A stretch of DNA of 64,000 bases from Candidatus Multivorans sp. GTDB taxonomy: Bacteria; Acidobacteriota; Thermoanaerobaculia; Multivoradales; Multivoraceae. The DNA lies in assembly GCA_965224025.1 (NCBI GenBank), contig OZ245033.1, positions 1,536,001 through 1,600,000 on the forward strand. Reading direction: 5' to 3'. A model generated the notes under the pieces. It did no database searches, was not told where the DNA came from, and worked only from the letters and a program-made list of their open reading frames with translations. This document shows positions 30,586 to 38,621 of the stretch, one piece after another. The first letter of the stretch is position 1; the number at the start of each line of letters is the position of its first letter. The position numbers were made by a program, and so were the translations under genes.

Positions 30586-31925
30586 GGGTCTTCAGGCTGT
30601 TGTGTGGGGACGGAGCTGCTAGAGAGGCTGCCGATCGGCCTTAGACTGGCGGGATGAAGAGTGCCAAGACGTTCGAGAGGCTGTTGGGGATCAAGCCGCC
30701 GTGGGGTGTGCGGGAGGTGGTGCTTCGCATGGACGAGCGGCATCCGCGTCGCCGGGGTCCGGTGGTTGGCGGCACGGTGGAGATCCACGTCGAGCATTGT
30801 GGAGAGACTCGCTGTCCGGAGTGCGGTTTGCCGTGTCCGGGCTACGACAAGAGGCATCGCCGTTGGCGTCACCTGGACACGATGCAGCACCAGACTCGGG
30901 TTCACGCGGAGGTGCCTCGGGTGCGTTGCGTCGAGCACGGCATTCGCCAGTTGAAGGTGCCTTGGGCGGACTCGGGTTCGCGGTTCACGGCGCTGTTCGA
31001 AGCGGAGGCTGTCGAGTGGCTGCGTGAGGCAAGCGTGCATGCGGCGGCTTGCCGTCTGGGTCTGAGTTGGGATCAGGCGGCGGGGATTCAGCGGCGGGCC
31101 GTGGAACGGGGTCTGGCACGGCGAGAGATGAAGCCGCCTCGGTTGATCGGCGTGGACGAGACGTCGTTTCGGAAGCGCCACGAGTACGTGACGGTAGTCA
31201 ACGATCTGGGACGCGGGGTGGTGACCCATGTGGCCGACGGTCGCGGCCGGTCGGCCATCGACGGTTACTTCCAGGAGTTGGGTGAGAAGAGCTGCGCGGG
31301 TATCGAGCAGGTGGCGATGGACATGTGGCCGGCCTACATCTCCTCGGTGGAGGAGTACACGGATGCGGACATCGTGCACGACAGGTTCCACATCGTCGCG
31401 CACCTGAACCACGCCGTGGACCTGGTTCGCCGTGCTGAGCAGCGGGAGCTGCTCGAAGCGGGGGATTCGCGTCTGAAGCGGAGCCGCTACCTGTGGTTGA
31501 TGAAGAGTGGACGAATGACGCGCCTGCAGCAGCGGCGTTTCGCTGCTCTTCGCGCGAGTCACCTTCGCGTGGCTCGCGCTTGGGCGATCAAGGAGATGGC
31601 GCGCTCCTCGTGGGGCTACGTGCGCCGCGGCTGGGCCGAGCGACGGTGGAAGCGCTGGTACAACTGGGCCGTCCGCAGTCGCCTGGAACCGATCAAGCAG
31701 GTGGCGAAGATGATCAAGAACCACTGGGATGCCGTCATCAACGCCGCCGTGTCCACCGTCTCCAACGCCCGCGCCGAAGGCATCAACGCGAAGATACAGG
31801 AGATCAAGCGAAAAGCGCACGGCTATCGAAACCGAGCACACTTCCGGCTCGCCATCTACTTCCATCTCGGCGGACTCGACCTCGCGCCGGAGTCACTTCA
31901 TGCCCACACACAACCCTGAAGCGCC
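30586..31925 (+). mobile_element. ISL3 element 2 (transposase 30654-31919)
   Basis: 23-bp IRs (18/23); 8-bp TSD AGAAATTC at 30578-85 and 31926-33. Confidence 0.95.
30654..31919 (+). CDS. ISL3 family transposase
   Basis: CPECG zinc finger, [30 protein letters not shown]. Confidence 0.94.
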
Positions 31926-32015
31926 AGAAATTCTGTAAGTGGTACGATGAAGCGCGCCATTCCAAGATGGCGTCCGGCATTCGTATAGGGGATTATGTCG
32001 AATAGTGCCCAAGCG

Positions 32016-32459
32016 TCACGGGATACCGGCGGCGTGGAAGAAGAACCGTTCGAGGTTCTCGCGCACGAAGACATCGAGAGCGATTCGTGTGCCTGCCGAT
32101 CCGGGCTTGTGGAGGTGACAACGCATCTCTACCGCGCTCCATCGAGGCGTGACGATCACATCTGACTGCTCCGCCATCAAGAACCGCAGTTGTAGGCCGG
32201 TCGACTGGAACGATACGGCAGCAACCGACTCTCCGTCTCGTTTTTGCGCGACTCGCAACGTGAGTTCTTCTTTGACGACCTCGTACCGATACTTCTCGCC
32301 CCGGCACTCCAAGAGCTTGTTCATGTCCGCGGTATCGCGCTCGACAAGCTGCCGAACCTCGTTCTCCAAGAGAGAATCCGAGTTGCAAGCCGCACGTCGA
32401 AAGACCCATCGCGGAGCTTCTGTGGCGTTATCTCGTTGGGGTTCTTCGCTCATTGGCAC
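32016..32459 (-). CDS. Hypothetical protein (IS1595 passenger)
   Basis: 147-aa ORF with globular composition, overlapping the upstream ORF stop; ends 1 bp from the left IR. Confidence 0.65.
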   Translation of the reverse strand: MPMSEEPQRDNATEAPRWVFRRAACNSDSLLENEVRQLVERDTADMNKLLECRGEKYRYEVVKEELTLRVAQKRDGESVAAVSFQSTGLQLRFLMAEQSDVIVTPRWSAVEMRCHLHKPGSAGTRIALDVFVRENLERFFFHAAGIP

Positions 32460-32773
32460 TGCGGCGGCAGTAGTTCTTCGATCTTCCGTTCGATGTCGGC
32501 GGCGGCATGGAGGTTCTTCGTGTACTGCTCTATGGCGCGGAGTGCTTCGGCGTAGTCCACGTAGCGCGCATCTCGCATCTCGACCGGATAGCCGCCAGTC
32601 ATTCGGACGTTCTGATCCGCGTCTCCGATGGCGCTCAGCATTGACGCGGCGGCTTGTGTCAGAGACCGAGCGATCCCCTTCGCCTTGGTGCGGTAGCAGG
32701 CTGCTGAATTCTCGGCTTGCCGCCGCTTCAGCATGAGGTCGCCGAGGCGTTCACTGTCCGACATGGAGGCCAT
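32450..32773 (-). CDS. Hypothetical helical protein (IS1595 passenger)
   Basis: About 105-aa ORF divergent from the transposase; ATG at 32773 or 32764. Confidence 0.6.
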   Translation of the reverse strand: MASMSDSERLGDLMLKRRQAENSAACYRTKAKGIARSLTQAAASMLSAIGDADQNVRMTGGYPVEMRDARYVDYAEALRAIEQYTKNLHAAADIERKIEELLPPQCQ

Positions 32774-32810
32774 CTTACCACTTGACAGGACGGGCACTAT
32801 CCTGTAATCT
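32772..32810. promoter_or_regulatory. Transposase promoter with embedded IR core; overlapping divergent extended -10
   Basis: TTGACA(32782-87), 17 bp, TAATCT(32805-10); the spacer holds GGGCACTAT, identical to part of the IR; minus strand TGGTAAGAT at 32780-72. Confidence 0.65.
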
Positions 32811-32817
32811 TCTGGGC

Positions 32818-33807
32818 ATGACGACGACACTGCAAGACGCACCCGGTAAGCACTACCGGAAGGGCATGAGCCTGATCGACGCGATCCGCCTGTTCCCCGA
32901 CGATGCGGCGGCGGAAGCGTGGTTCACGTGCATCCGCTGGCCCGAAGGTCCATCGTGCCCGCACTGCGGCTCCGAGAACGTCCAAAGTGGCGCGAAGCAC
33001 AAGACGATGCCGTACCGCTGCCGGACGTGCCGCAAGCGCTTCAGCCTCAAGACTGGCACCGTCATGGAGGCGAGCAACCTCGGCTACCAAGTGTGGGCGA
33101 TGGCGCTGTACCTGCTCCTGACGGGTCTCAAGGGCGTATCGAGCATGAAGCTGCACCGTGACTTGGACGTGACGCAGAAGACCGCGTGGCACCTCGCTCA
33201 CCGTCTCCGCAAGGCGTTTGAGGCCGAAGGGCCGCGAGTCGTCTTCGAGGGGCCGGTAGAGGTCGATGAGACGTACATCGGCGGTCTGCGGAAGAACATG
33301 CACGCGAAGAAGCGGAAGACCCTTGAAGGCCGCGGCACCGTGGGCAAGACCGCCGTGGTCGGCATCAAGGATCGGGAGACCAAGAAGGTCGCGGCGCGGG
33401 TCGTCCGCTCGACTGACGGCGGGACGCTTCAAGGTTTCGTGCGCGAGCACGTCGAACCCGGCGCGACGGTGTACAGCGACGATACCGGGGCGTACAGCGG
33501 TCTGACCGAGTACGAGCGCGGCACCGTCCGGCACTCGGTCGGCGAGTACGTGGACGGCAAGATCCACACGAACAGCATCGAGTCGCTTTGGTCGATGCTC
33601 AAGCGCGCCCACAAGGGCGTCTACCACAAGCTCTCGCCGAAGCACCTACAGCGCTATGTCGATGAATTCGCGGGGCGGCAGAACATTCGGGAGTTCGACA
33701 CCATCGACCAAATGACGGTCGTATCAGCGTGGCTGGTCGGCAAGCGACTCCGCTACCGCGAGTTGATCGCCGACAACGGTCTGCCGTCCGGCGCACGTTC
33801 GGCATGA
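32818..33807 (+). CDS. IS1595 family transposase
   Basis: CPHCGS..YRCRTCRKRFS zinc ribbon, HTH, VEVDETYIGG, VYSDD, HTNSIESLWS. Confidence 0.95.
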   Translation: MTTTLQDAPGKHYRKGMSLIDAIRLFPDDAAAEAWFTCIRWPEGPSCPHCGSENVQSGAKHKTMPYRCRTCRKRFSLKTGTVMEASNLGYQVWAMALYLLLTGLKGVSSMKLHRDLDVTQKTAWHLAHRLRKAFEAEGPRVVFEGPVEVDETYIGGLRKNMHAKKRKTLEGRGTVGKTAVVGIKDRETKKVAARVVRSTDGGTLQGFVREHVEPGATVYSDDTGAYSGLTEYERGTVRHSVGEYVDGKIHTNSIESLWSMLKRAHKGVYHKLSPKHLQRYVDEFAGRQNIREFDTIDQMTVVSAWLVGKRLRYRELIADNGLPSGARSA

Positions 33808-33816
33808 CGGCGGACG

Positions 33817-33848
33817 GCCAGCGCGCCAGCGCGCCAGCGCGCCAGCGC
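33817..33848 (+). repeat. Simple sequence repeat (GCCAGCGC)x4
   Basis: Four exact 8-bp copies between the transposase stop and the MTase body. Confidence 0.95.
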
Positions 33849-33853
33849 CGGAA

Positions 33854-35206
33854 TTGTCCACTGCAACTTCCGAGCCCAACTGGAAGAACCGGACTTTGTT
33901 CCACCGGGACAACCTAGAGGTCTTGCGCGGCATGAACAGTGAGACGGTGGACCTGATCGCCACAGACCCGCCGTTCAACAAAGGGCGGGACTTCCACGCG
34001 ACGCCCGACAGCCTCGCGGCAGGCGCGTCCTTCAAGGACCGCTGGACGTGGGAGAACGACGTCCAACAAGAGTGGGTGGACAAGATCGCCGATGACTGGC
34101 CTGCGATCAAGGAACTGGTCGAGTCAGCCGGGGCGTGCTACGGCGAGGACATGGCGGCATTCCTGGTCTGGATGGGGATTCGGTTACTCGAAATGCGGCG
34201 GGTACTCAAGCCGACCGGGGCGATCTACTTGCACTGCGACCACACGGCGGGCGCGTATCTCAAGATGCTCATGGACGCGATCTTCGGGCGCAGGCAACTC
34301 AAGAACGAGATCGTGTGGCACTTCCGCACATCGTCAGGAGCACCCAAGAAGCACTTCATCAAGAACACGAACACGATCTTCTTCTACGTGAAGTCTAGGA
34401 ACTCCGTGTTCAATCTCCAGAGAGAACCGTGGCCGGAGTCCACACTGAAGAAGTGGCAGCGCGACTCCAAGGGGAGGGTCTACCGAACCAACAACGGCAA
34501 GCGGTACTACATCGACCCTAAGGGCAAGCGGATGGACAACGTGTGGGAGATCACGCTGTCTTCACGATCTCGGGAGCGTGTCGGGTACCCGACGCAGAAA
34601 CCGATAGCGCTCTACGAGCGCATCGTCCAGGCATCGTCCAACGAAGGCGACATCGTTCTTGACCCATTCTGCGGTTGCGCGACTACATGCGTGGTGGCGG
34701 AGAAACTCGGCCGACAGTGGGTTGGGATCGACATTTGGGACAAGGCGCACGAGACGGTTCTGGACCGCCTACGGAAAGAAGAACTGTCGGTAGGGGGTGA
34801 CCAGGGCGACCGGCTCTTCACCGTTGGTGACGTGGCCTACCGGAGAGACGTTCCGGTGCGAACTGACGATGCCCAGGTCGCCGCTCCCAAGATGCGTCGC
34901 CGTAAGTACTTCTTCGAGGACCCGCCAGACGGTTACACGAACCGCGAGCGGAAGCAGTTGCTCGTCGAGACCAACGCCCGCGACGGACTCGTGTACTGTG
35001 ATGGCTGTGACCGCGGATTCGACTCGCCCGAGTACCTGCAACTCGACCACAACACGCCGCGATCAAGTGGCGGCAGCAACAACATCTCGAACCGTCGCCT
35101 GCTCTGCGGCCCGTGCAATCGCCGCAAGTCGAACACACTGACGCTCATCGGACTGCGGAGGAAGAACAAGAAGGACGGATTCATGGCGAATCAGACCGTA
35201 ACCTGA
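33854..35206 (+). CDS. Beta-class amino-DNA methyltransferase fused to C-terminal HNH endonuclease
   Basis: Motif IV DPPF, then YPTQKP and motif I LDPFCGCATT; C-terminal CDGC...DHNTPRSSGGSNNISN..LLCGPCNRRK; start TTG 33854 or coupled ATG 33804. Confidence 0.9.
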   Translation: MSTATSEPNWKNRTLFHRDNLEVLRGMNSETVDLIATDPPFNKGRDFHATPDSLAAGASFKDRWTWENDVQQEWVDKIADDWPAIKELVESAGACYGEDMAAFLVWMGIRLLEMRRVLKPTGAIYLHCDHTAGAYLKMLMDAIFGRRQLKNEIVWHFRTSSGAPKKHFIKNTNTIFFYVKSRNSVFNLQREPWPESTLKKWQRDSKGRVYRTNNGKRYYIDPKGKRMDNVWEITLSSRSRERVGYPTQKPIALYERIVQASSNEGDIVLDPFCGCATTCVVAEKLGRQWVGIDIWDKAHETVLDRLRKEELSVGGDQGDRLFTVGDVAYRRDVPVRTDDAQVAAPKMRRRKYFFEDPPDGYTNRERKQLLVETNARDGLVYCDGCDRGFDSPEYLQLDHNTPRSSGGSNNISNRRLLCGPCNRRKSNTLTLIGLRRKNKKDGFMANQTVT

Positions 35207-35220
35207 TAAGGATGGAGTCC

Positions 35221-36537
35221 TCAATCGCAATGCTCGGCGACCAGATCGTCCCACGCGGCGCACTTGCTCCGGTCATCGTCCGAGCAGTGCCCAAGGCCCT
35301 TCGGGCAGAGGTTCGCTTGGGCGCGGTACAGATCGCACTGAGCCTCCGTAGGCTTGTTGGCCTCGTGAATCGTCTGAAGGCCCTCGACGGAGACAGCGAT
35401 GCTCGCCGCCGCGCTCTTGCAACTGGCGTCTTGAAGGTCTTGCAGGTCGCTCGTTGCGCCCCTTACGGCGGCGCAATCAGTACCGGCCAAGAACGACCCG
35501 ACATCGACCCGATCAGCTTCCAACGTGCCTTTGAGGTTCGGGACGAGTGGCCGCCCGTTCTCGCGCTTCTGATGGATCTCCGCTGCGGTCGCGTCCAGTA
35601 CGTGCAGCCTCGAAGACCCGTCGGGGTGCGTGAGACTCGCGGCCCACGCGGCACCGGGATTCCTAGCGATCATCTTCTCCCAGAACGCCGAGACGCACCC
35701 CACGTCGTAGCCCGCCCGCGCGGCCAAGTAGACCCCCGCATAGTCGGCCTCGACCTCGAACTTCGGCGCGTGGTAGAGCGCCCCGAGGGCGCTGTAGTCC
35801 TGGTAGACGCCAGTCGCGACCGTCACGACGGCTCCCAGCAGAGCGCCGAGGATCTGGTTCTGCTTCACGGCCGCGAGATGCCCGTAGGCATTGTGCGCGA
35901 GTTCGTGGCCGAGCAGGTACGCGAGTTCGTCGTCGGTCTTGATGAAGTCCATCGCGGCGGTCGTGACCGCCACCGACTTCCCGTCCGCGAATGCGTTCAC
36001 GGTCGCGTGTTCGAGCAGGCCAGCCGGGTAGTTGCAGTGCCGAGTGCTCGCCATGTAGAGCGTGGCTTCGCCTCCGTCTCGAAGAACGGTCAGCCTGTAG
36101 TGAAGCGACTGCGGGCTACGCTTCATCCGTCGCTCGGCTCGTCGTCCAGTGCCGAGATCCTTCCCGTCGCGGGCCACGATCCGGTCGCCCGCTCGCAGGC
36201 CCGCCTTTTCGGCCGGGGATCCTGCAGCTACGTGGGTCACGGTCACGTACTCGCTCGGGCCGTACTTCGCCGTCCATGCACTGCGATAGGGCTGCGCGGC
36301 TGTCGCGAGGTCGGCGAACCAGAAACCCGACATCAACCGCGTCTTCGTGCATCGGCCCGAGTTGGCGCTTGTGAGTCGGAACCAGACGCTCTGGAGCCTC
36401 TCGAACTGCTCCATGTGCTTCTTCGCCGCTTCCGCGACCGTGGCGTTGTAGGCGGTCGGGTTGACGGTTGGTGCCGACGTGGTGGTCGATACGCAGCCGA
36501 GCGCGGTCAACGCCAGTGCGGCGGCGAGTCTCTTCAT
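35221..36537 (-). CDS. M48 metallopeptidase lipoprotein with PDZ domain and Cys-rich tail
   Basis: GGAGGAGG SD, lipobox TALGC, PDZ GSPAEKAGLRAGDRI, VNAFA, LGHELAH, EVEADY, LTHP. Confidence 0.88.
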   Translation of the reverse strand: MKRLAAALALTALGCVSTTTSAPTVNPTAYNATVAEAAKKHMEQFERLQSVWFRLTSANSGRCTKTRLMSGFWFADLATAAQPYRSAWTAKYGPSEYVTVTHVAAGSPAEKAGLRAGDRIVARDGKDLGTGRRAERRMKRSPQSLHYRLTVLRDGGEATLYMASTRHCNYPAGLLEHATVNAFADGKSVAVTTAAMDFIKTDDELAYLLGHELAHNAYGHLAAVKQNQILGALLGAVVTVATGVYQDYSALGALYHAPKFEVEADYAGVYLAARAGYDVGCVSAFWEKMIARNPGAAWAASLTHPDGSSRLHVLDATAAEIHQKRENGRPLVPNLKGTLEADRVDVGSFLAGTDCAAVRGATSDLQDLQDASCKSAAASIAVSVEGLQTIHEANKPTEAQCDLYRAQANLCPKGLGHCSDDDRSKCAAWDDLVAEHCD

Positions 36538-36763
36538 GGGGGCCTCCTCCAGTTGAGGCACCAGCCCCTGGATTGGCGCCGGGCCGTTGCAACCGCCATG
36601 CAGCGAGCACGGACAAGGCTCCCGCCTATTCGCCCGGCTTCGGGAGCTACCCGCAGCCTCAGAACAGGCTGTTGTATTCAGCGGATAACCCGACTCAGGT
36701 CCCGCTGCTGACGATTGCAAGCCGCTACTGTAGCAGCACCAGTTCTAGGAGAACGGAGGCAAC

Positions 36764-36952
36764 GTGAGCAAGAAGAAGCGGAAGATCGAACTGGTCAAGG
36801 CGGACTACCAGCCGTCACGGGCCGAACAGCGCGACGAAGTAGCGCCGCCAGCGGACTTGATGGAGTTGCCGCTGATGGAACGGCTTGCCGAAGGTGCGCG
36901 GCGACTGCTTCAGCCCGTTGAGATCACCTACACCAAGCGCCCGCGCCGGTGA
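36764..36952 (+). CDS. Small hypothetical protein at the right end of IS1595
   Basis: 62 aa, GGAGG SD, stop 3 bp before the right IR. Confidence 0.7.
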   Translation: MSKKKRKIELVKADYQPSRAEQRDEVAPPADLMELPLMERLAEGARRLLQPVEITYTKRPRR

Positions 36953-37021
36953 GCGGCTTGGGCACTATTCGACATAATCCCCCTCGTTTACCTGTTTGGG
37001 CGTCCTCGTTTACTGGTCCCC

Positions 37022-38621
37022 TTACGGCGACTGCTCGCAGTCGAACGTCTGCCTGGGGGCTAGCAGTGCCGTCCCGAGAGCGCGAGAAGTCGTAGTAGAG
37101 GCCGGTGCGGTCAGGCTGGATGACGAAGGCGTACTCGAAGTTGCCGTCGTCGTCGAGACCGAAGTCCCACCTGAGTTCGAGTCCGTTGACTTGGAACCGA
37201 GCTGAGCGGGTCAGTCCAGAGACAGCCACTTCACCGCTGTCCCCCTGGCGTGTCAGGGCAACCAGGGTCGTGTCCGGTTCCCATGACTTGAAGCAACGCC
37301 AAGTCTCGCCCCGGTTCTCAGGTGGACTCTGCGGCGTGTTCGGGGGCTCGGTCTGCCCGAGGATCTCCAGTGCCTTGGGATGACCTTGGTCTGCGGCTAA
37401 GCGAAACCACTCCGCGGCCTCGGACTCATTCTGGGGCACGCCATTCCCTGTGGCGTACAGAACACCAAGCATGAGCTGTGCATCGGCATGCCCCTGCTCT
37501 GCCGCAAGACCAAACCACCGAGCGGTTTCCGCGTTGTTCTTCGGCACACCTCGTCCGCCACCGTACATCAACCCGAGGTTGTACTGGGCCTGTGCGAACC
37601 TCTGCTCGGCTGCCAATCGAAACAGTCGCGAGGCTTCGGCGTCGTCCTGGGGAACGCCATACCCACGCTCGTACATGTGTCCGAGATTGACTTGTGCTCC
37701 ACCGTGGCCCTTCTCTGCAGCCGGGCGGAACCACCGGAGGGCCTGGATGTCGTCGGTTCCCATGTAGAGGGACCCGAGTTCGGCCATCGCTCCAGTGTGC
37801 CCCTGATTGGCCGCTCGGAGTAGCCAGGACAGAGCCAGGCCCTTGCTCTCGTCGTCACCTACATCACCATGCCTTTCGGCGTATGCGATTGCGAGGTCGT
37901 ACTGCGCCTCCGCATCGCCGCCTTCCGCAGCGCCTAGAAGTCGATTGAACTTAGCGTCGCCTTGTGTTTCGGACCCGCCTCCTCCATCCTCCAGCGTCGA
38001 ATCCAGCTCGGCCAGTTCATCGAGCGTGTCCCCGAACATCTCAAGCGTCTGGCCGTGGCCCTGTTGGGCTGCACGATGGAGCCACCTCACGGCTTCGGTG
38101 CCGTCTTCAGGCACACCATCTCCCTCGATGTACAGCATGCCGAGCTTGAACTGTGCGTCCGCGTGGCCTTGTTCAGCCGCCATGCGGAGCCAACGTGCAG
38201 CTTCAACGGGGTCCTTCGGCACACCCCGGCCCTCGTGGTGGTAGAGCCAGAGCAAGAACTGCGCATCGGCCCAGCCTTGGTCGGCAGCGCGGGTGTACCA
38301 ACGTGCCGCTTCGGCGTAGTCCTGAGACACATCTCCCGCCCCAACGCTGTAGATCCCGCCGACCTCCATCTGTGCCTCGGCGTCCCCCTGGTCGGCAGCA
38401 CGGCGAATCCACTTCACAGCTTCGGCGGGATCGGCCTCCATGTATGTAGCCCCGAGTCGAAACGCGGAAGCGGCGTGACCTCTTTCTGCCAGATCCCGTA
38501 GTTGTGCGGCGTCAGACGGATCCAGCCCTCCCGTCGTGTTTGTCTGGGGGTGAGCAGCCGTGGCGAACGCAAGACACCCGGCGAACGCGGGGACAACGAG
38601 TGCGGACTTCCTGTAGATCAC
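37022..38621 (-). CDS. Secreted Sel1-like repeat protein
   Basis: Signal peptide; about 9 AAEQGhAdAQ..LG..Y..G.GV..D..EA.rW repeats; likely stop TAA at 37022-24 if the G5 run near 37057 is really G4 (ORF track runs to 36924). Confidence 0.9.

Follow-up and report, generated by a model that had tools for sequence, protein, structure and literature searches.

What is the role of a short tandem repeat that lies directly behind the stop codon of a transposase gene and in front of the next reading frame? This arrangement occurs in a 64,000-nucleotide stretch of DNA from Candidatus Multivorans sp. (assembly GCA_965224025.1, contig OZ245033.1, positions 1,536,001 to 1,600,000; hereafter the window), where an IS1595-family transposase gene is followed by a gene encoding a DNA methyltransferase (methylase) fused to an HNH nuclease. 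Both genes reside on a transporter insertion sequence (IS) of 4,995 bp (window 31988-36982) bounded by 27-nt inverted repeats that are 100% complementary. A first-pass annotation of this DNA had regarded transposase and methylase as the mobile unit; both indeed belong to the element, the true extent of which proved to be larger as judged from its inverted repeats and its three copies. We consider it probable that the start codon overlapping the transposase stop and the slippage-prone 8-nt tract behind it together form a frame switch of the methyltransferase-HNH gene on this transporter IS.

The transposase stop codon TGA (33805-07) overlaps an ATG (33804-06), and four exact units of GCCAGCGC are located at 33817-33848, 10 nt beyond the ATG. 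Re-reading of the overlap (ATGA, 33804-07) and of the repeat reproduced the coordinates given earlier, and Tandem Repeats Finder (TRF) agreed with them (period 8, 4.0 copies, 100% matches, score 64). Positions 33816 and 33849 both interrupt the period, hence exactly 4.0 copies are present; the tract is the sole perfect one with at least four copies among 36 TRF rows of the window. This perfect non-triplet tandem repeat lies near the 5′ end of the coding region, past the start codon and ahead of the conserved body. The distance from the ATG to the conserved GAG-CCC-AAC-TGG amounts to 13 nt + 8n + 23 nt, where n is the number of units; therefore, the two are in frame only if n = 0 mod 3, which matches the statement of the first-pass annotation that 0, 3 or 6 copies join the ATG to the methylase. 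In the 4-unit allele, the frame of the coupled ATG comprises 37 codons and ends with TAG at 33915-17, again as annotated, and in 7-unit alleles it comprises 45 codons. The window allele is thus predicted to be OFF, since four units put the coupled ATG out of the methylase frame. Upstream, the methylase frame extends without a stop to 33767 and overlaps the 3′ end of the transposase gene; TTG 33854 is its first ATG, GTG or TTG codon past the stop at 33764-66.

Perfect repeats with units of 4-12 nt, no fewer than 3.5 copies, and a length of 24 nt or more were counted across the whole source genome (G000; 5.14 Mb, three contigs). This census revealed 18 loci, 13 of them with units of 6 or 9 nt; the five non-triplet repeats were all 8-mers, and three of these five were copies of the element described here. 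With the three element copies set aside, 13 of 15 perfect repeats have triplet-multiple units. The other two non-triplet repeats are located at C1:2064885-2064913 (CTCCGCCG, 3.6 copies) and C1:4443879-4443910 (CGCCGCCG, four copies). Folded as DNA, the tract forms a hairpin of -14.4 kcal/mol with a z-score of 0.38, which is not special.

G000 harbors three full-length copies of the element with identical end points, namely the window copy, C1:240863-245881, and C1:1968051-1973030, and their unit counts are 4, 7, and 7. Comparison of the window copy (n = 4) with C1:240863 (n = 7) revealed no mismatch in 4,995 nt and a single gap of 24 nt. The same pattern was observed in two relatives, whose genomes are likewise designated by G-numbers. 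In G037, where the unit is GACCGGGC, copies with n = 2 and n = 8 show 0 mismatches in 1,921 aligned nt and differ in the tract; in G049, where the unit is GCCAGCGC, copies with n = 11 and n = 12 show 0 mismatches and one 8-nt gap over 2,062 columns. Since tract length is the sole difference between otherwise identical copies in three genomes, the tract mutates far faster than the surrounding DNA and is hypermutable relative to it. The first-pass annotation had named an invariant copy number as an argument against a switch; the counts of 4, 7, 7 in G000 and, within the same genus, of 2, 8, 8 in G037 and 11, 12 in G049 are anything but invariant. The frame class is altered between the copies in G049 (11 vs. 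12) and kept in G000 (4 vs. 7) and G037 (2 vs. 8), where the lengths differ by multiples of three units. Frame-keeping differences in two of three within-genome pairs, against a chance of one-third each, are not significant, and the idea that they betray another translated frame was dropped for this reason.

Other alleles were also sought in assembled sequencing runs and metagenomes. Four of 12 listed sequencing runs were compared with the locus as assembled contigs; the contigs covering it end inside the tract (33681-33840 and 33819-34158), and unit number is not readable from them. A 3-unit allele was considered for run X1, in which the left contig ends at 33840, 6-7 nt short of the 4- or 7-unit prediction, and was dropped because the right contig has no matching branch. 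Two exact-pattern scans of JGI metagenomes for other alleles gave 0 matches, and a scan of genome contigs with exact patterns found only three places, all in one metagenome-assembled genome of the same genus (Acidobacteriota).

The reading frame that leads from the overlapping codon into the methylase was examined in related elements. In two types of repeat-free sister elements in G000, ATGA reads directly into the methylase (MNPPDAGTLYYGDCL... and MTILGSFSLVPNSLYYGDCL...); this junction was read in one of four copies of the first type and in three of four copies of the second. G029 has GTGA leading into MSEPNWANRTLFHGDNL, and G046 has TGATG leading into MAEPNW, both in frame with the conserved N-terminus. 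In G048, ATGA and nine GACGCGG units are in frame with an intact 492-codon body. Because repeat-free sister elements of the genome and the genus read from the overlap straight into the methyltransferase, the comparison shows that the overlapping start is the native, translationally coupled methylase start and belongs to the design of these elements. The first-pass annotation had asked whether homologues start at the coupled ATG; those linked to an IS, in G000, G029, G046, and G048, do start at the coupled codon and in frame. A repeat-free copy at C1:889k (MTADGAELS...) was rejected as a model of the ancestral in-frame start, since the window type has one extra base (TCCACTGC vs. TCCCTGC); in the C1:889k copy, the ATG frame differs from the methylase frame. 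Additionally, a locus in G050 (L014, G050:C1:126485-129733) encodes a transposase 95% identical to that of the window, coupled by ATGA to a different cargo (MKEGLNDNLHTAKRSKYDEFYTQLPD...) without any repeat; its sequence reads as a cargo that is swapped behind a conserved coupling joint.

Repeats at the junction were then traced through 57 genomes of the family, 33 of which gave any match; 42 loci were read, 30 of them from the search output and 12 retrieved in addition. At least eight genomes have tracts at this junction, with five distinct units, two of them one base apart: GCCAGCGC in G000, G049, and G050 (2-12 copies), GACCGGGC in G037 (2, 8, and 8 copies), GACGCGG in G048 (9 copies) and G017 (at least 16 copies), CGGGGGC in G037 (10 copies), and GCGACCG in G045 (20 copies) and G015 (14 copies). 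All five units are 7 or 8 nt long, never a multiple of 3, copy numbers range from 2 to 20, and the tracts of at least four units are all perfect; G041 contains a degenerate two-unit remnant. Five different non-triplet units at one site point to selection for the capacity to shift the frame and are hard to explain by random decay. A phylum-wide sample of 401 genomes contained 36 with a match, and such a tract was present within 260 nt upstream of the methylase in 0 of 24 loci read from outside the genus, two of which carried A7 runs.

Three observations on these junctions may be added. In G017 (L020, G017:C141:55679-58905), the heptamer tract of at least 16 units contains a run of 10 N, where the repeat appears to have broken the assembly. 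In G025 (L039, G025:C6:7115-10255), nine copies of CTTCACGG precede the GTG start of a homologous methylase at a distance of about 75 nt, with no transposase detected upstream; this repeat may be a promoter-located switch. Finally, CGGAATT directly follows the tract in most junctions read (window 33849-33859, L005, L015-L021, L047-L054), whatever the unit, the repeat-free L005 included. Exceptions are G050 with CGCAATT and L050 and L053 with slightly different sequences. The motif sits in different methylase frames among element types, and shared ancestry is the only explanation offered for it.

The product of the methylase frame was analyzed using profile and structure comparisons. Pfam assigned residues 32-301 to N6_N4_Mtase (1.8e-47) and residues 382-429 (34997-35140) to HNH (2e-09). 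Together with the DDE_Tnp_IS1595 match of the preceding gene, this bears out the annotated linkage of an IS1595 transposase to a methyltransferase-HNH fusion. The best solved matches, covering residues ~10-310, were the Type II N6-adenine methyltransferases of the beta class M.MboIIA, M.RsrI, and M.BceJIV (PDB 1g60, 1eg2, 8urk; 1.7e-23 to 4.6e-19). Foldseek found the same three proteins with the AlphaFold2 model of mean pLDDT 79.3 (E 4e-17, target TM 0.72-0.82), and no solved methylase-HNH fusion occurs among the Foldseek matches listed (28 of 500). In PADLOC, Type II methylase models scored 8.8e-57 versus 8.9e-36 for Type III, the Type III Mod proteins being more distant. The partner gene res of Type III mod/res systems is not the next gene, which encodes an M48 peptidase on the opposite strand; the nuclease is provided by the fused HNH domain.

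An alignment of 40 homologues revealed as invariant the residues D38-P-P-F41, D270-P-F-x-G-C-A-T-T, D398-H399, N413, N422, and the CxxC pairs C382/C385 and C418/C421, and likewise N9, N12, R13, H17, D19, N20, and L21. Hence, nuclease and methyltransferase domains are predicted in one polypeptide with the predicted catalytic residues present. A product starting at the internal Met27 would be without the seven N-terminal invariant residues and without the strand 14-17 and helix 20-26 modeled by AlphaFold2 with pLDDT ~90, and would probably be inactive.

None of the three G000 copies, one of which is a diverged allele, has a disrupted ORF (open reading frame). Bodies from G037 and G049 differ with dS 0.895 and dN 0.042 over 384 codons (dS and dN, synonymous and nonsynonymous divergence); the resulting dN/dS of 0.047 indicates long-term purifying selection on the gene body. 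The third G000 copy is a mosaic allele, with identities of 142/145 (residues 1-145), 36/109 (146-250), 48/80 (251-330), and 72/75 (376-450, HNH). Identity between the two alleles is lowest, at 33%, in a block of about residues 146-250 (~34289-34603), and their ends are 96-98% identical. We take the divergent block to be the position of the target-recognition domain by the architecture of M.RsrI and M.MboIIA; the AlphaFold2 model has a beta-rich insert there. The third copy probably carries a swapped recognition domain, such that the copies would recognize different sequences.

A number of findings weigh against a frame switch, and the first of these concern the start codon. In the window element type, TTG 33854 is always in frame, whatever n, and as the first canonical start in the methylase frame it could be used constitutively, with the repeat acting as a variable spacer whose unit number is irrelevant. 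A TTG start would give MSTATSEPNW..., an N-terminus just four residues longer than the usual MxxPNW, and such lengths are typical: in 103 of the 120 best database homologues, the start is located 13-40 residues ahead of DPPF, the others being eight that start at the internal Met (Met27), eight that start farther upstream, and one fragment. Furthermore, homologues not linked to an IS start near the TTG position; the one in G022 starts at ATG-GGG-CCG-AAC-TGG with GGAGGA upstream. However, TTG 33854 has no Shine-Dalgarno (SD) sequence at usable spacing. Duplex energies, which were calculated with a generic anti-SD sequence, as the 3′ end of the 16S rRNA of G000 was not found by a probe, amounted to -3.5 kcal/mol for the TTG with pairing that abuts the codon, -7.0 kcal/mol for ATG 33932, and -1.7 kcal/mol for ATG 33804; the earlier remark that the TTG has no evident SD is in agreement with this. 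The GGAATTG motif that holds the TTG is conserved in G037-type elements with the TTG out of frame, and it thus looks like inherited coding sequence rather than an evolved start; these elements have no canonical start between the tract and the conserved N-terminus. Additionally, ribosomes coming from the coupled ATG would traverse the TTG in another frame, and a constitutive TTG start leaves the 7-8-nt length of all five units unexplained. Taken together, we regard constitutive initiation at this codon as quite unlikely; low-level initiation there may nevertheless make the OFF state leaky.

Further points against a frame switch come from the frame states, which were determined for 19 copies, 15 of them repeat-bearing (L017, L046, and L047 by eye). 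Among the repeat-bearing copies, 4 of 15 are in frame with the coupled start (ON) and 11 are not. The three G000 copies are all OFF and belong to one frame class (4 and 7 = 1 mod 3). Three of the four ON copies have a broken body: the in-frame G049 copy contains a one-base insertion after DPPF, also present in the 11-unit copy, and two in-frame G050 copies have TAG at codon 72. The copy in G048 is the only one both ON and intact. The two G051 copies (L016, L045), which contain one GACCGGGC unit only and thus no repeat tract, have an intact body of 480 codons that is out of frame with the coupled GTG; on its sequence, this is an OFF allele not easily able to slip back. Finally, a 4-unit tract is short for fast slippage.

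These frame states could mean that the tract is hypermutable and unused, a slippage-prone accident in a costly cargo that is being lost, without any reversible switch. Decayed cargo does occur in G000, where the C1:889k copy is frameshifted and one L010-type copy is split, and the two-unit remnant in G041, the uniformly OFF copies of G000, and the broken ON alleles of the relatives are in line with such a loss. The dN/dS value of the gene body, the ORF that stayed intact in all three G000 copies, and tracts that are perfect and uninterrupted with up to 20 units argue to the contrary. Five non-triplet units are found at one site, whereas random decay would strike any position. We therefore consider an unused tract rather unlikely, if less so than constitutive initiation at the TTG.

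Among the 13 distinct alleles, three are in frame with the coupled start, six have the methylase in the transposase frame behind its stop only (G037 n = 2 and n = 8, G049 n = 11 and a ~5-unit copy, G041, G045), and four are in the third frame. The six alleles, together with the open methylase frame that overlaps the transposase 3′ end in the window, could be read as recoding, in which stop read-through or ribosomal frameshifting yields a transposase-methylase fusion and tract length sets the event that is needed. Six of 13 is, however, not far from the chance value of one-third, recoding in G000 would take a +1 shift, and inspection of the sequence revealed neither a slippery nor a stimulatory signal; recoding is accordingly a very improbable explanation. 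These frame states, nearly even over the three frames, argue for free slippage and do not demonstrate a working switch. The broken ON copies are a hint that the ON state is costly.

A frame switch would operate as follows. Each GCCAGCGC unit gained or lost would shift the frame, and n = 0 mod 3 would join the ATG to the methyltransferase-HNH ORF; with n = 4 or n = 7, the ribosome would halt after 37 or 45 codons. Slipped-strand mispairing may toggle the gene between ON and OFF reversibly in a population. In the ON state, the product would be a DNA methyltransferase of the beta class, probably N6-adenine-specific, with a fused HNH nuclease, presumably a single-chain enzyme resembling a restriction-modification system and produced in step with the transposase. 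In the OFF state, the output would be limited to traces of a product started at TTG 33854 or to an N-terminally truncated, probably inactive product from ATG 33932.

We tentatively put forward, as a possibility that falls short of an expectation, that the element represents a mobile phasevarion, i.e., that IS1595 transporter elements spread a self-contained, repeat-gated epigenetic or defence switch and that switchability itself is selected. The methylase-HNH protein would then be translated only with the transposase, under the control of a hypermutable repeat with units of 7-8 nt. A newly inserted copy might drift to an ON or OFF state of its own and, via domain swapping, to its own specificity, such that methylation and restriction in one genome would occur in several states that switch independently. 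The switch site would have arisen anew on at least five occasions within a single genus of Acidobacteriota that is environmental and probably sponge-associated, and the bias toward OFF and broken ON copies would suggest that the ON state is costly, e.g., by self-cutting, and is used transiently.

Most of what is known about phase-variable methyltransferases comes from host-adapted pathogens, in which they are encoded by fixed genes of Type I or Type III on the chromosome. At the locus described here, the same logic would be found on a transposon of a large-genome, high-GC environmental lineage, tied to translation of the transposase and present in multiple copies with differing recognition domains. 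If this is true, epigenetic or restriction bet-hedging may be gained and multiplied through transposition, and insertion sequences may carry cargo that is silenced and revived by slippage. Annotations would also mis-call such genes systematically; among the 120 closest homologues, the internal Met was taken as the start in 8. A clean test system is available in 5-kb copies that are identical apart from their unit number.

The features of the element are compiled in Table 1. Its passengers within the inverted repeats are the methyltransferase-HNH gene, the M48/PDZ peptidase gene, and two or three small ORFs. The transposase matched DDE_Tnp_IS1595 (PF12762, 3e-40, profile 3-153/153), Zn_ribbon_IS1595 (PF12760, 7.5e-08), and NCBIfam NF033547 (180.8 bits vs. 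a cut-off of 75). The transposases of the three G000 copies are 100% identical; nine further IS1595 paralogues in this genome show 70.6-74.7% amino acid identity, and each of the nine stands upstream of a methylase gene. For the 147-aa cargo ORF, the nearest ESM-Atlas clusters were hypothetical proteins, mostly of Acidobacteriota (score 0.93), which is a lead only. A sigma-70 scan of 31900-37100 gave 1 site versus 0.9 expected and none ahead of the transposase gene; a perfect TTGACA at 32782-87 has a weak -10 partner and was not used as evidence.

Table 1. Features of the IS1595-family transporter element (window coordinates).
Feature	Position	Strand	Remarks
Left terminal inverted repeat	31988..32014		27 nt, complementary to 36956-36982; outer 8 nt 31980-31987 = TTCGTATA
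Cargo ORF, 147 aa, no assigned function	32016..32459	-	no Pfam, NCBIfam or PADLOC family
Cargo ORF, at most 130 aa, no assigned function, divergent from transposase gene	32450..32842	-	no family above threshold
IS1595-family transposase, 329 aa	32818..33807	+	ATG 32818, stop TGA 33805-07; open frame back to TTG 32782
Coupled start codon ATG, overlaps transposase stop (ATGA)	33804..33806	+	putative native methylase start, by comparison with sister elements
Frame-setting tract, (GCCAGCGC)x4	33817..33848	+	TRF; 7 units in the other two G000 copies
Out-of-frame 37-codon reading from coupled ATG, 4-unit allele	33804..33917	+	ends TAG 33915-17
Methyltransferase-HNH ORF, 450 aa counted from TTG 33854	33854..35206	+	Pfam; AlphaFold2 mean pLDDT 79.3
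Internal in-frame ATG (Met27), candidate re-initiation site	33932..33934	+	15 nt past leader stop; AGAGG at 33916-33920
M48 metallopeptidase with PDZ domain, cargo, 499 aa	35221..36720	-	Peptidase_M48 1.5e-15; PDZ_6 6.7e-09
Small ORF, 62 aa, putative gene inside element	36764..36952	+	no family
Right terminal inverted repeat	36956..36982		27 nt; outer 8 nt 36983-36990 = CTCGTTTA

None of the three G000 copies has identical 8-nt flanks on both sides. Instead, a flank of one copy recurs at another: TTTCGGAT lies to the right of the C1:240863 copy and to the left of the inverted C1:1968051 copy, and TTCGTATA lies to the left of the window copy and to the right of the C1:1968051 copy. The remaining flanks of the C1:240863 and C1:1968051 copies (CTCGTATA, TTCGTATA) pair with the flanks of the window copy. 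This sharing fits 8-bp target duplications that were shuffled afterwards through inter-copy recombination, and the pattern suggests large inversions or exchanges among the three 5-kb copies. Upstream of the element, a complete ISL3-family transposase gene (30654-31919, + strand, 421 aa, DDE_Tnp_ISL3 1.1e-73) stops 69 nt short of the left inverted repeat. Downstream, an ORF with Sel1-like repeats, named from its sequence pattern alone (36924-38621, - strand, 565 aa), takes its final ~20 codons and stop from the right end of the element (36924-36982); insertion of the element probably replaced the original C-terminus of this gene.

In comparison with known enzymes, the closest solved methylases M.MboIIA, M.RsrI, and M.BceJIV are without an HNH domain, unlike the enzyme described here, and to our knowledge none of them is repeat-switched or transposon cargo. 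Closer in regulation are the phase-variable Type III mod genes (phasevarions), e.g., ModA of Haemophilus influenzae (PMC5909438, PMC4525171); in a 2018 survey, 662 of 3,805 Type III mod genes contained repeats, environmental species included (PMC5909438). As far as these sources describe the mod genes, three properties are common to both systems: a perfect non-triplet repeat in its 5′ part sets the frame of a beta-class N6_N4 methyltransferase ORF, the central recognition domain varies from allele to allele, and several switchable methylases can exist independently of each other in one genome. Units are 7-8 nt long and GC-rich here, as compared to tetra- and pentanucleotide units given for mod genes in PMC5909438; the terms "octa" and "hepta" have 0 matches in the main text of that survey, and its supplements and those of PMC7383803 may list 7-8-nt units in other methylases. 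In contrast to mod genes, this gene has no res partner, its nuclease being a fused HNH domain, and it is cargo of an IS1595 transposon, its start codon overlapping the stop of the transposase gene. The host belongs to a lineage of Acidobacteriota of the uncultivated type and is not a host-adapted pathogen.

The work of Siguier, Gagnevin and Chandler from 2009 is reportedly the source cited for transporter IS (tIS) of the IS1595 family. A zinc-ribbon IS1595 transposase and terminal inverted repeats enclosing extra genes are shared by the present element and these tIS. IS1595 elements with passenger genes, IS-flanked solitary methylases, and an 8-bp target duplication of IS1595 tIS are on record in the accessible parts of PMC3129680 and PMC2853133. 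Besides its repeat-gated coupled methylase, the present element carries the M48/PDZ peptidase gene and the small ORFs as cargo. The first-pass annotation knew of no description of such a switch on an IS1595, and a literature search likewise found no paper that joins a repeat-switched, translationally coupled methylase with IS1595 cargo.

Cj0031 of Campylobacter jejuni is said to have a poly-G tract and a Type IIG architecture with a PD-(D/E)XK-type nuclease and a gamma-class methylase, and not to be transposon cargo. Unlike this enzyme, the protein described here combines a beta-class methylase with a C-terminal HNH domain and is located on a transposon. As a phase-variable Type IIG restriction-modification enzyme (PMC4889913), Cj0031 resembles it, to the extent covered by that source, in having nuclease and methyltransferase in a single polypeptide with repeat-switched expression. 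Phase-variable methyltransferases as a class are already known; no paper found describes them in this transposon setting. Newly reported here are three pairs of copies that are identical outside the tract, the tally of five units sharing one site within a genus, the dN/dS of the gene body, and the probable swap of recognition domains between copies of one genome.

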